Part shown: positions 7,784 through 20,482 of the stretch, piece by piece
Layout of the letters: every line of letters starts with the position of its first letter
Position numbering within the stretch: the first letter of the stretch is position 1
IMG/VR virus record: IMGVR_UViG_3300027821_000007
Location: 1-64,000 of that record
Strand: one strand, 5' to 3'
Length of the DNA stretch: 64,000 nt
DNA from: a virus
Notes under the pieces: generated by a model
The model's input: only the letters and a program-made list of their open reading frames with translations
Databases searched by the model: none
Told to the model about the DNA's origin: nothing
Made by a program: the position numbers and the translations under genes

Positions 7784-7860
7784 GGGTTTCCTTGTCTACC
7801 CGACGGTGCGCCGCGGTATGCGTCGCTTGCCTGCCGGAAACCTTGCGGTTTCGGAAACCC
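7784..7860 (-). ncRNA. hammerhead-like RNA, type II topology, U3-A8 core (UAGACAA)
   Basis: GGGUUUCC-GAA-ACC gcaa GGU-U-UCCGGC..GUCGGG-UAGACAA-GGAAACCC-c-AUG. Confidence 0.6.
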
Positions 7861-7918
7861 GTCCCGGGGTGGCCTGGCGTAGCCAGGCGTAACCATACGG
7901 GGCGATATTCGTTACGTA

Positions 7919-7947
7919 TATATGGCGATTATGCCGAGATGGATCAA
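7919..7947 (-). promoter_or_regulatory. putative leftward promoter TTGATC-N17-CATATA
   Basis: Heads the leftward operon; shares CATAATCGCCATAT with the site at 18453-18481. Confidence 0.5.
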
Positions 7948-8367
7948 CCGGTTATCGACAATATTGTGGTGGACCTGAAATTCTCCGCTTGCGCGCGCCG
8001 GGCGTGGTGCTAGGTTTCCGGCTTCGCCGAAAACGAGTGAAGGCCCGGCGAGGACCGGGCCTTCGATCGATTTGAGGCGGAAAACTAGGCTTCCGGGTGA
8101 ATCAAAAGAGGATAGATAGGTCAGGCACGTCGTCCAGCAGTCTCCTGATATATAGATAACGCTCCACCCTACGCAAGCGTTTGTAGGTCAAGGCACCTCA
8201 CCCGGGCATCACACCGCCGTATGACAACCGTCATGCGGGCGTTACACCGGGGGGAGGAAACCGTCCCATGCGTGCATGCACAATTTCGATTTCGGTGGTC
8301 CAGCCGCATGGGAAAGCACGCGTCGACGTGAAGGACGTGATGCTGCCCTCCTTGTGAGGGGGCGGCC

Positions 8368-10554
8368 ATGGACGACGCAGATCTCCACCGCTGCCAGAAC
8401 GACGGCCGGTTGCTGCGCTCCTACGTCGAGCGGCAGGTAAGGCTAAGGAAAGACGGGAAAAACTGGAAGGGGTTGTGCCCCTTCCACGACGAAAAGGACG
8501 GCTCCTTCACCGTCTACGACGACGGCCATTTTAAGTGCTACGGCTGCGGCGAGCGCGGCACTGTCTTCGACTACGTCAGGCTGCGTGACGGGATCACCAT
8601 TCCCGAAGCGATCGAACTGGTCGGACGGGAACAAGGCATGCACTCGTCGGAGCGGAAAGACCGGCCCCGGCCGGATCCAAAGCCCAACGGCGCCCACAAC
8701 GCCAATGGCGCCCACAACGCCAACGGTGCGCACGCCGAAACCTGGGTACCGCTCGCTCCGCCGCCACCCGACGCCGCCAAGCCAAGCGAAGCGCAGCTCG
8801 CCTGCGAGATGCTCCACGAATATGTCGGCGCCGACGACCGGGTGCTGTTCTACGTCCGCCGCTTCGAAGCCAAAGGCGACAAATCCAAGAAATTCCTGCC
8901 CCTGACCTTCGGCGCACTCGATGGCAAATGGGGCTGGCACACCCGAGCCGTGAACGCTCCCAAGCCACTTTACCGACTAAACGCCCTGGCCTTGGCTCCG
9001 CCCGACGCCGTGATCCTGCTCTGCGAGGGCGAGAAGGCCGCAGAAGCCGCCCAGAGGCTGTTTCCCGACCATGTGGCCATGGCATGGATGGGCGGGGTCA
9101 ACGGCGACGGCAGCGCCGATTTTGGGCCCCTGGCGAGCCGTGCAGTGGTCCTGTGGCCGGATGCCGATCAACCCGGCGCCGACGCCATGGACCGGATCAC
9201 CAAGCGGCTGGGCGAGCTACGCGTGCGCGATGCGCCCGCGCGCGCACGCGTGAGACGCCTCGACGTCAAGGGATTGTTCAAGGGGTTCGATGCCGCCGAC
9301 CTCGAGGCCGACCCGCCGGAAGACCCGGAAATATGGCTGAAAGAGCGGCTGGAGCCCGAACCGGAAGATCCCGACCTGCCCGCCGGCGAGATCCAGATCG
9401 CCCAGGGCACCATCCGGCCGATCAGCGCCATCCCGCCCCGCCAGTGGGCCTACGGCAGCTTCATGCTGTTCGGCTCGGCCGCCGTCATCGGCGCCATGGA
9501 CGGGGCCGGGAAAGGCATCATCGCGGTCGGCACGCTGTTGGCCTTCATCACCGGCAAACCCCTGCTGGGCGAGCATGTGTGGCGCAAGGGACCGGTCGCG
9601 ATCATCACCTACGAAGACGATCAGGAGGAATGGGAACGCCGGATCGCCGCCGCCTGCATGCTCCACCAACTCGACTACGAGACCGTCATGGCCGACATCT
9701 ACTTTTTCAACAAACCCGGCGGCAAGGTGACGATCGCCGCCCCGACAAAGAACGGGCTCGTGTTTCCGGACAGCCCGCGCATCGTGCATTTTCTCAAAAA
9801 ATACCAGATCACCCTGCTGATCATCGATCCGTTCAACAGCGCCCACACCCTGGACGACGGCAACAACAACGTGGCGATCGCCGCGGTGGCCCAGGAAATC
9901 ACCGCGATCGCCCAGAAAAGCCGGGTCGCCTGCCTATTGCTCCACCATCTCCGCAAGGGCGCCGTGGGCAGCGTCGACGATCTCATGGGCGCGGTCGCCC
10001 TGCGCGCCAACTTCCGATCCTGCCGGATCCTCCAGGTCGCCGACGAGGAAACCGCCAAAAACATGGGGATTACAGCCAAAAACGCTTGGCAATACCTCTC
10101 CGTGGTCGGCTCGAAAGAAAACTACGCCCCGCCCCTGGCCGACCGGATGTGGTTCCACAAAGCCAACTTCGACCTGGGCAACCCCGACGGTCTCTACAAA
10201 GGCGACAGCGTCGGCGCGATCGAACTCTGGAAACCACCCCCCGTGTTCGAAGGCCTCGACCTCTCCGTGCTCCGCGACGTGTTCGACGTCATGGCTGCAA
10301 CGCTGCATGCCAAAAGCCCGCTTTGCAAGGAGTTACCTTGGATCGGAGACCCGCTGGTCGCCCAGGACAAGACCGTCGCCGAAGCCAAGAAGATAGTATC
10401 TATCTGGTTGGAAAGTCAGACACTTATCCCCGGCAAGGAATTCAGGAACGAACGCCGCAATCTGGTCCAGACGCTGGTCCCCAACCCAGTCAAGGTCGCC
10501 GAGATGATCGCCGATTTGGCTGGTAGTTCGAACCAGGGGTTCGCCGATGACTAA
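8368..10554 (+). CDS. primase-helicase (CHC2 zinc finger + TOPRIM + RepA/AAA_25 helicase)
   Basis: GLCPFHDEK...FKCYGCG; LCEGEKAA and WPDAD TOPRIM motifs; GAMDGAGKG Walker A; LLIIDP Walker B; LLHHLRK. Confidence 0.93.
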   Translation: MDDADLHRCQNDGRLLRSYVERQVRLRKDGKNWKGLCPFHDEKDGSFTVYDDGHFKCYGCGERGTVFDYVRLRDGITIPEAIELVGREQGMHSSERKDRPRPDPKPNGAHNANGAHNANGAHAETWVPLAPPPPDAAKPSEAQLACEMLHEYVGADDRVLFYVRRFEAKGDKSKKFLPLTFGALDGKWGWHTRAVNAPKPLYRLNALALAPPDAVILLCEGEKAAEAAQRLFPDHVAMAWMGGVNGDGSADFGPLASRAVVLWPDADQPGADAMDRITKRLGELRVRDAPARARVRRLDVKGLFKGFDAADLEADPPEDPEIWLKERLEPEPEDPDLPAGEIQIAQGTIRPISAIPPRQWAYGSFMLFGSAAVIGAMDGAGKGIIAVGTLLAFITGKPLLGEHVWRKGPVAIITYEDDQEEWERRIAAACMLHQLDYETVMADIYFFNKPGGKVTIAAPTKNGLVFPDSPRIVHFLKKYQITLLIIDPFNSAHTLDDGNNNVAIAAVAQEITAIAQKSRVACLLLHHLRKGAVGSVDDLMGAVALRANFRSCRILQVADEETAKNMGITAKNAWQYLSVVGSKENYAPPLADRMWFHKANFDLGNPDGLYKGDSVGAIELWKPPPVFEGLDLSVLRDVFDVMAATLHAKSPLCKELPWIGDPLVAQDKTVAEAKKIVSIWLESQTLIPGKEFRNERRNLVQTLVPNPVKVAEMIADLAGSSNQGFADD

Positions 10555-10840
10555 CCTCCAAAACCTCAGCAAAACCTCAGCAAACCTCGACGGTCATTCC
10601 ACTGCTGAGGTGCTGAGGTTTTTCTATACTACGTATAGGGGTAAACCTCAGCAGCAAAATCGCCAAAATGCACCTCAGCAAAACCTCAGCACCGCTCCGC
10701 TGCGCTCGGGTCGTGACCTCCCCCCCCCACCAAGAGGGGGGCGCCTAAGCGCGCCCCCCCCCGTGCTTTGGGCACGGGGGAACCTCTTGGTGGGGGGGTA
10801 CGGCACGGGTCACCTGGGCGAAAAAGTCAGCACCTCAGCA
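10551..10840. repeat. iteron-like ACCTCAGCA repeats, putative replication origin
   Basis: About 8 copies of ACCTCAGCA (6 forward, 2 reverse) around a short AT-rich patch, directly after the primase-helicase. Confidence 0.65.
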
Positions 10841-10861
10841 TCGCAAGAAAGGAACCGTCCA

Positions 10862-19859: not shown

Positions 19860-19952
19860 TCATTTGACGATGAAGCCCATGATGAGAAGCCAGGCCCCTA
19901 AGAGCCAGGCCCACCACGGGACATAGAGCAGGGCGCAGGCCAATAGGAACAT
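19860..19952 (-). CDS. 30-aa membrane peptide
   Basis: MFLLACALLYVPWWAWLLGAWLLIMGFIVK; AAGG upstream. Confidence 0.5.
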   Translation of the reverse strand: MFLLACALLYVPWWAWLLGAWLLIMGFIVK

Positions 19953-20064
19953 TGGTCGGTTGCCTTGTGCTGGGGGTTGCAAAAGAAACGCCCCACCCCG
20001 GAAAGGGCTGGAGCGCTTCTCATAAATGGTGATCAATCGTATTGATTGCAATGTAGGAATGAAG

Positions 20065-20101
20065 AAAACCCCCAACCCTTCGATGAGGGCTGGGGGTTTT
20101 T
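20065..20101. terminator. bidirectional terminator
   Basis: AAAACCCCCA...TGGGGGTTTTT. Confidence 0.65.
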
Positions 20102-20105
20102 CTGT

Positions 20106-20411
20106 TCAGCTAACGACTTCGGCGTCGACCGGAGCGGCTTTGGCCTTCTTCTCCTTGGCGGTGAAGGGCCATACGGTCTCGGGCTTCTCGAAGCGGATGT
20201 TGCTGACTTTGCGGTAGAGGTACTTGGTCGACTTGACGGTGCCGTAAGTGGCGCCGCCGACGACCGCGAGGCCGCCGATAACAACAGCCGACTTGCCCAG
20301 GTTGTAGAACCCAGCCTCGACACCCCAGCGCAGGTTTTCGCCAGCGCGGCGGAGCGAGATGAAGGGACGAACAGCCTTGACGGCATCGGCAACAGTGGTT
20401 GTGTCAAGCAT
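20106..20411 (-). CDS. single-TM hypothetical protein (101 aa)
   Basis: GGAGG RBS; AVVIGGLAVVGGATYG. Confidence 0.75.
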   Translation of the reverse strand: MLDTTTVADAVKAVRPFISLRRAGENLRWGVEAGFYNLGKSAVVIGGLAVVGGATYGTVKSTKYLYRKVSNIRFEKPETVWPFTAKEKKAKAAPVDAEVVS

Positions 20412-20420
20412 TGTAGCCTC

Positions 20421-20482
20421 CTTGGTTTCGCCGGCCTTTTCTAGAGAAGCCGGCTGATCTCCCCCCGCGAGGGGGTACCAAG
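20421..20482 (-). ncRNA. hammerhead-like leader RNA with G3-C8 core (GAGAUCA), NUH=GUA
   Basis: CUUGGU-A-CCCCC ucgc GGGGG-GAGAUCA-GCCGGC..GCCGGC-GAA-ACCAAG-gaggcuaca-AUG. Confidence 0.6.

Follow-up and report, generated by a model that had tools for sequence, protein, structure and literature searches.

Do the short RNA elements that recur between the small genes of a phage adopt a hammerhead fold, and do they cut themselves? The question is raised by the first 64 kb of a 91.5-kb virus record (IMG/VR record IMGVR_UViG_3300027821_000007), which is a single contig with 63% G+C. This whole stretch of 64,000 nucleotides is hereafter called the window, and positions refer to it unless another contig is named. 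The initial annotation had taken four 7-nt cores and two circularly permuted copies as support for a true hammerhead fold, with selection acting on the catalytic fold and not on a DNA repeat. We found 18 elements in the phage, all of them on the minus strand of the window, of which 16 are of type III and two are of type II. From the comparison of these sequences with those of relatives, we regard the chances as evenly balanced that the family is a hammerhead-derived three-way junction, which can be either pseudoknotted or hammerhead-like, switches between these two forms and cuts 3' of position 17 (H17).

Detection and layout of the elements

The elements were detected with a descriptor composed of a hairpin, the core, a second hairpin and GAAA. 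The strict form of the descriptor, which demands a 7-nt core and perfect closing pairs, matched the copy at 20421-20482 only. A looser scan covered both strands of the window; all 16 type III copies that it detected were on the minus strand, and the occurrence of this pattern is far beyond chance. A first covariance model was built from 13 window copies. Covariance-model searches detected 14 window copies at 41-69 bits and 48 further copies in five related sequences, and a second covariance model aligns 62 type III copies. The descriptor scan adds divergent type III copies and the type II copies; the tallies of the core given below are based on 69 type III copies, and the family comprises about 75 copies, which are spread over six related sequences of phages or prophages.

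Outside the present record, a pattern scan of IMG/VR together with the covariance model placed the family in three other phage contigs of 98-105 kb (6, 18 and 17 hits), and a scan of genomes placed it in two contigs of metagenome-assembled genomes (MAGs) of Alphaproteobacteria. Most of what the viral and genome pattern scans returned were chance single hits, and only contigs with several hits or with a covariance-model score were kept. The copies in the two MAG contigs suggest that the hosts are probably Alphaproteobacteria. A megablast of positions 1-22000 of the window against phages and plasmids gave a match to ssb only, and a search for related loci with two single neighbouring proteins gave no relatives.

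In the 5' to 3' direction, an element consists of the 5' strand of stem III, H17, the stem I hairpin, the junction strand N3-A4-G5-A6-(N7)-N8-A9, the stem II hairpin, G12-A13-A14, and the 3' strand of stem III from A15.1. The consensus can be written as gCCUU|UC[stem I]GG-CAGAGA-GC[stem II, loop CUGNNN]GC-GAA-AGGCAAACC-AUG. A Shine-Dalgarno (SD)-like GAAAGG or AGGA forms part of the 3' strand of the closing stem, directly upstream of the start codon. All but one of the 18 elements end no more than about 15 nt from a start codon, mostly 1-12 nt.

The four cores on which the initial annotation relied are present on the minus strand. CAGAUGA, CAGACGA, UAGACAA and GAGAUCA are the reverse complements of plus-strand positions 3455-3461, 17994-18000, 7793-7799 and 20456-20462, respectively. 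Each of them has the stem I hairpin before it and the stem II hairpin, then GAA-A, after it. The two ends of the element are held together by a closing helix, and a single unpaired base other than G precedes stem I. The positions under which these cores had been listed refer to the low-coordinate ends of the elements and not to the cores themselves. The four cores are not typical of the family, since the 6-nt junction CAGAGA is found in 13 of the window's 16 type III copies and the listed 7-nt cores belong to the minority that retains N7.

The stems are formed by RNA of the minus strand

The pairing of the three stems was analyzed in 55 aligned copies. The fraction of paired cells was 90.9%, in comparison with 36-45% when the partners were slid against each other. 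Changes on both sides of a pair were observed in 257 cells, in comparison with 84+-7 in shuffles. Helices III, I and II were 85-92% paired, and both-sided changes were found at 15 of the 19 pairs. G-U pairs were frequent; at one pair, for example, 38 U-G were counted. With the covariance model, the reverse strand scored 12-20 bits, in comparison with 53-69 bits for the minus-strand copies. Minimum free energy (MFE) folds of single copies also returned the junction, with z of -2.5 to -3.3.

A repeat at the level of DNA, such as an operator, a promoter or a REP-like sequence, or else a chance pattern, has to be considered here. The region around ACC-GCAA-GGU is indeed a near-perfect DNA palindrome in both type II copies, a point in favor of such a repeat. 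Against it stand the frequent G-U pairs and the low scores of the reverse strand, the location of all copies on the coding strand of the downstream gene, and the variation of the stem sequences among copies while the pairing is kept. This explanation is already contradicted by these facts, and we regard it as very improbable indeed. Because the stems covary, the copies lie in one orientation only, G-U pairs are common and the reverse strand scores low, stems I-III are real and belong to RNA of the minus strand. On this point, the initial view that selection acts on an RNA fold and not on a DNA repeat is borne out by the larger alignment.

An extension of stem III (GCCUUUC/GAAAGGC) is seen in the MFE folds. 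As a selected pairing it was rejected, since changes at positions 17 and 1.1 are not accompanied by compensatory changes at A13 and A14.

Core conservation and covariation of positions 3 and 8

The junction strand of the hammerhead reads C3 U4 G5 A6 N7 G8 A9, and U4 is part of the conserved CUGA turn and is treated as a member of the invariant core. In this numbering, CAGAGA corresponds to C3 A4 G5 A6 G8 A9, with U4 replaced by A and N7 absent. The remaining positions follow the hammerhead closely. Among the type III copies, G5 was found in 69 of 69, A6 in 64 of 69 and A9 in 68 of 69, and in the alignment of 62 copies G12 was invariant (62/62), as was the pair A15.1-U16.1 (62/62), while A14 was found in 61 and A13 in 56; all copies in the window conform to G12-A13-A14 and A15.1-U16.1. 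Position 17 was U in 45 copies, C in nine and A in eight, and G in none.

Positions 3 and 8 were C-G in 61 of the 69 type III copies, G-C in five, U-A in two and C.A in one. Wherever position 3 is not C, in seven copies, position 8 carries its complement. Fisher's test gave p of about 7e-9 for this association, a value that is not corrected for the relatedness of the copies. The changes represent more than one event. G3-C8 occurs in the 20421-20482 copy (GAGAUCA), in GAGACA copies of two other phages (G002 and G003), which are its orthologues and stand before homologous small proteins, and in a separate pair of GAGUUCA copies. One relative has U3-A8 in two of its type III copies. In addition, the type II copy before the gene at 7273-7782 has the core UAGACAA, and its orthologues have UAGACAA (L065:19587-19644) and CAGAAGA (L063:11186-11250), so that the three give U-A, U-A and C-G. 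Because changes of state recur in several lineages, orthologues included, the 3-8 covariation survives when the alignment is expanded to about 75 elements of six genomes; a single exception to the C-G, G-C and U-A combinations was seen. An expanded alignment was one of the checks that the initial annotation had called for.

The circular permutation reported there was likewise reproduced. Both permuted copies, at 2862-2911 and 7784-7860, are real type II elements, in which stem III is closed by ACC-GCAA-GGU and stem II is open, and each of the two has been kept at orthologous sites of three phages. The type II orthologues of the 2862-2911 copy in G002 and G003 precede the same gene as in the window.

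Departures from the hammerhead and a pseudoknot with loop II

The following observations weigh against a hammerhead that cuts. Position 4 is A in 67 of the 69 type III copies, and U4 was found in two lineages only, both in relatives. N7 is absent, leaving a 6-nt strand, in 60 of the 69, and the strand C3 U4 G5 A6 N7 G8 A9 is not what the family carries. Among the relatives, six copies have C at position 13 and five have U at position 6, and both type II orthologues of the 2862-2911 copy carry C-G instead of A15.1-U16.1. A search of the window against Rfam at the gathering score gave no hammerhead match, and a search at E<=10 of positions 1-24000 and of six elements alone (671 bases) gave none either. 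Hammerhead-like RNAs with several core changes have been tested and were inactive, according to the legend of Fig. S7 of Perreault et al. 2011 (PMC3088659).

A further departure is found in loop II. In 64 of the 69 type III copies, a triplet of loop II, usually its first three bases on the 5' side, is the exact complement of N3-A4-G5. When letters were shuffled within the loops, the mean was 13.7 complementary copies and the maximum was 25. The pairing covaries, with the combinations CAG/CUG, UAG/CUA, GAG/CUC (in the three orthologues and in the separate GAGUUCA pair) and CUG/CAG (in the two U4 lineages). Eight of the nine copies with a core other than CAG carry their own complement and none of them carries CUG (p about 1e-8, not corrected for relatedness).

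Geometric reasoning suggests that the topology should be that of a classical H-type pseudoknot, in which a 3-bp helix is stacked on stem II; A6-(N7)-N8-A9 should then cross the deep groove, leaving three to five bases of the loop. Because the pairing occupies bases of the catalytic pocket, the pseudoknot should be incompatible with an active hammerhead core or with the 3-8 pair. Judged from the covariation, N3 has two alternative partners, and both are maintained.

It is worth considering that the elements descend from hammerheads and no longer cut. According to this explanation, catalysis would have been abolished when U4 changed to A and N7 was lost, and the pseudoknotted junction would have been kept as an element of translation or RNA stability. 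The junction would hide the ribosome-binding site within stem III or stem II until it is opened by the action of a protein, an RNase or the ribosome. The prevalence of A4, the usual absence of N7, the tolerated A13C and A6U variants, the missing matches to the Rfam hammerhead models and the inactive RNAs on record all agree with this explanation, as do the location of the SD, which is always within the closing stem, and a covariation of the pseudoknot that is at least as clean as that of the 3-8 pair. A purely structural junction, on the other hand, has no obvious need for a 3-8 pair, for invariant G5, G12, A14 and A15.1-U16.1, or for a base other than G at position 17. The type II copies are also difficult to reconcile with it. 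They have no loop II and hence no pseudoknot, and they have kept the core and the 3-8 complementarity, which argues that the hammerhead-like state itself is under selection. We consider the loss of cleavage possible, though not probable.

Two other pairings were examined and rejected. A base triple of N8 with the pair between N3 and the loop does not agree with the H-type pseudoknot, which places N8 in the stem II groove and well away from that pair. Pairing of the CUG of loop II with A6-G8 was discarded, since the UAG/CUA and GAG/CUC variants fit the N3-A4-G5 register only. For the tertiary contact between stems I and II, inspection by eye gave no complementarity between loop I and loop II; loop II complements N3-A4-G5 instead.

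The U4 lineages include members with the core CUGUUGA at L114:10174-10234 (+) and L116:747-805 (+), both in Alphaproteobacteria MAG contigs. These members are like the hammerhead at position 4, position 6 is U and not A, and loop II has CAG, complementary to CUG.

Comparison with hammerheads and other RNAs

One member of the family has the textbook core. The copy at L065:7073-7135, in a related phage, carries CUGACGA, and Rfam Hammerhead_3 (RF00008) aligns it over all 54 positions with 23.7 bits and an E-value of 0.0028 in a 131-base search. The score is below the curated gathering score of 48.5 bits. The open reading frame (ORF) behind this copy resembles the ORF behind the 3430-3480 copy, with 50% identity over 16 amino acids (aa) only. 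Because this match is short, we suggest only tentatively that CUGACGA and CAGAUGA are orthologous states.

This member bears on another explanation, namely that the family is a separate class of RNA that resembles the hammerhead by convergence, either a new pseudoknotted ribozyme or a leader that binds a ligand or a protein. Hammerheads have neither the conserved loop II triplet nor the 6-nt junction, and the family is absent from Rfam, which speaks for a separate class. However, the core of one member, at an apparently orthologous site, is identical to that of the hammerhead, and this member aligns to RF00008 over the full model. All the other invariant positions are hammerhead invariants, and both hammerhead-type permutations are present. 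A separate class seems distinctly unlikely to us. With RF00008 (clan CL00010), the elements share the order of stems and core strands, and they differ from it in that the window copies are unmatched even at E<=10.

A loop that pairs with a strand outside its hairpin is also known from riboswitches. SAM-II and preQ1-II are leaders with an H-type pseudoknot that hides the ribosome-binding site. The present elements resemble them in that a loop pairs with a strand outside the hairpin, near an SD held in a helix. They differ from them in showing no sign of a ligand, in standing in 18 copies before unrelated genes, and in using a ribozyme-like junction as the strand of the pseudoknot. The 2862-2911 copy also matches the Pseudomon-groES RNA (RF01721) in the ACC-GCAA-GGU hairpin, the next hairpin and CAG. 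This assignment was judged to be chance, given 15.5 bits against 50, an E-value of 2.9, one copy only and no GAAA context.

The closest parallel is provided by the type II and type III hammerheads of prophages and phages described in PMC3088659, in which clusters flanking single genes are established. As in those clusters, copies are numerous between small phage genes, share one transcript strand and are a mixture of types II and III, and the three-stem junction has G5, A6, A9, G12-A13-A14, A15.1-U16.1 and a base other than G at 17. U3-A8 covariation among natural hammerheads is described in the same paper, as is a U10.1.U11.1 mismatch, and the U.U at 10.1/11.1 of the 3430-3480 copy corresponds to this known natural variation. 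Unlike those hammerheads, the elements have A4 in nearly all copies, usually lack N7 and include a natural G3-C8, a combination that is not mentioned in the sections of PMC3088659 examined. In the elements, moreover, loop II pairs with N3-A4-G5 and not with the loop of stem I, the SD is built into the closing stem, and a genome carries up to 18 copies. A literature search found no natural hammerhead with A4 or without N7, nor the present motif.

A changed core has a precedent in the A6C hammerhead of phage Bcep176, which belongs to the natural core variants with reduced or altered activity and prefers Mn2+ (PMC3088659, PMC7151607). That variant and the present elements both show that single core changes persist in intergenic hammerheads or hammerhead-like RNAs of phages. 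The Bcep176 variant is an isolated single copy, whereas here the changed core is the consensus of a family in several phages.

The claim of a true hammerhead fold is accordingly supported in part. The 3-8 complementarity, the permutations and the CUGACGA relative speak for it; A4, the missing N7, the lack of an Rfam match and the competing pseudoknot speak against it. On these sequences, the words "true hammerhead" and "catalytic" remain unproven.

Proposed role of the elements

If the elements are hammerhead-derived junctions that cut, the following mechanism can be proposed. The RNA would switch between the pseudoknotted form and the hammerhead-like form, and the latter would cut itself 3' of H17. 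The cuts would split a polycistronic early transcript into single-gene mRNAs. The downstream mRNA would begin with a 5'-OH and two hairpins, and the upstream mRNA would end with a GC hairpin, which is present before most elements, and GCCUU. Departure of the 4-7-nt upstream strand of stem III would then expose the SD, and with it the ribosome-binding site. The pseudoknot may represent an off-state, a folding intermediate or a lock that follows cleavage. A more specific version, which appears rather doubtful, holds that the core with A4 and without N7 represents a naturally occurring hammerhead variant that is active and is gated by its built-in pseudoknot. N3-A4-G5 would then by turns pair with loop II and form the catalytic pocket, and the timing of cleavage and of the ensuing release of the ribosome-binding site would be set on about 18 early genes per phage.

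The GC-rich hairpin lies immediately before most elements and has no U tract. On the minus strand of the window, it was found at 3480-3500, 4005-4030, 4405-4425, 4950-4975 and 6680-6720. Its 3' arm abuts the 5' strand of stem III or overlaps it by 1-2 nt. If the element cuts, this hairpin would form the 3' end of the upstream RNA.

The family occurs in several phages of roughly 100 kb with A4 and usually without N7, while the other hammerhead invariants and the 3-8 pair are kept. Cleavage by these RNAs would mean that the sequence requirements now accepted for the best-studied small ribozyme are too narrow and that homology searches miss such copies. If they do not cut, a ribozyme fold would have been re-used as an element of translation or stability. 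Either way, the two competing partners of N3 would constitute a simple conformational switch, and the order of gene, GC hairpin, element, SD and start codon would offer a natural means of insulating one cistron of an operon from the next.

Gene context and individual elements

The elements lie in two leftward-transcribed blocks of small genes, at 2.8-7.9 kb and 17.9-21.9 kb (Table 1). Genes of the window include those for a terminase, a portal protein, a primase-helicase and an Erf-like protein.

Table 1. Positions and types of the 18 elements in the window, with the means by which each was recognized.
Positions	Strand	Type and features	Recognized by
2862-2911	-	Type II, stem II open: GAUGCC-GAA-[ACC-GCAA-GGU]-U-[CCGGGC..GCCCGG]-CAGAGA-GACAUC	Inspection and MFE fold
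3178-3239	-	Type III, core CAGAGA, loop II CCUGACAGU	Descriptor and covariance model, 69.3 bits
3430-3480	-	Type III, 7-nt core CAGAUGA, U.U at 10.1/11.1	Descriptor and covariance model, 41.7 bits
3950-4004	-	Type III, core CAGAGA	Descriptor and covariance model, 69.3 bits
4349-4403	-	Type III, core CAGAGA	Descriptor and covariance model
4888-4946	-	Type III, core CAGAGA, H17 = C, stem III of 7 bp	Descriptor and covariance model
5317-5373	-	Type III, core CAGAGA	Descriptor and covariance model
5693-5751	-	Type III, core CAGAGA	Descriptor and covariance model
6614-6678	-	Type III, core CAGAGA then A.A at 10.1/11.1, H17 = C, stem III of 7 bp	Descriptor and covariance model
7784-7860	-	Type II: GGGUUUCC-GAA-[ACC-GCAA-GGU]-U-[stem I]-UAGACAA-GGAAACCC, U3-A8	Inspection and MFE fold, z -3.3
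17965-18029	-	Type III, 7-nt core CAGACGA, no loop II complement, no ORF after	Descriptor
19161-19224	-	Type III, core CAGAGA	Descriptor and covariance model
19688-19749	-	Type III, core CAGAGA	Descriptor and covariance model
20421-20482	-	Type III, core GAGAUCA (G3-C8), loop II CUC complementary to GAG	Strict descriptor
21030-21091	-	Type III, core CAGAGA	Descriptor and covariance model
21250-21305	-	Type III, core CAGAGA; top score with the first covariance model, 74.7 bits	Covariance model
21561-21619	-	Type III, core CAGAGA	Descriptor and covariance model
21871-21931	-	Type III, core CAGAGA	Descriptor and covariance model

Several copies deserve comment. In the 2862-2911 copy, five of the six pairs of stem II are formed, and the element ends 4 nt before the ATG of a 310-aa gene (1925-2857). 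The open stem II of the 7784-7860 copy has 8 bp (GGGUUUCC/GGAAACCC) with the SD inside, and the element ends 1 nt before the ATG at 7782. The 3430-3480 copy has no complement in loop II, and its SD, GGAGG, lies in and beyond stem III. In the 20421-20482 copy, H17 is A, and a 6-bp stem III contains the SD. The copy at 17965-18029 is the sole element without a following ORF; the surrounding few hundred bases (17860-18530, minus strand) contain no high-GC3 ORF on the same strand.

In the related 98-kb phage G001, a tRNA gene (L062:7474-7546, minus strand; 64.1 bits with Rfam) was found near the element-rich early region. In the structural region of the window, a 3127-aa ORF (37545-46928, plus strand) has no PHROG match at E<=0.001. 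Between the two blocks of elements, Tandem Repeats Finder detected a long tandem array (11428-14444, plus strand) with a period of 37-38 nt, or 74-75 nt as a double unit. The array has no convincing high-GC3 ORF and a strong AT skew of -0.28 to -0.33, and its conserved boxes CGGCTRCGCTC and ACGGTTC alternate with short variable segments. It is adjoined by an ORF at 15352-16347 (minus strand), the 331-aa product of which matches PHROG 4285 ("transposase").

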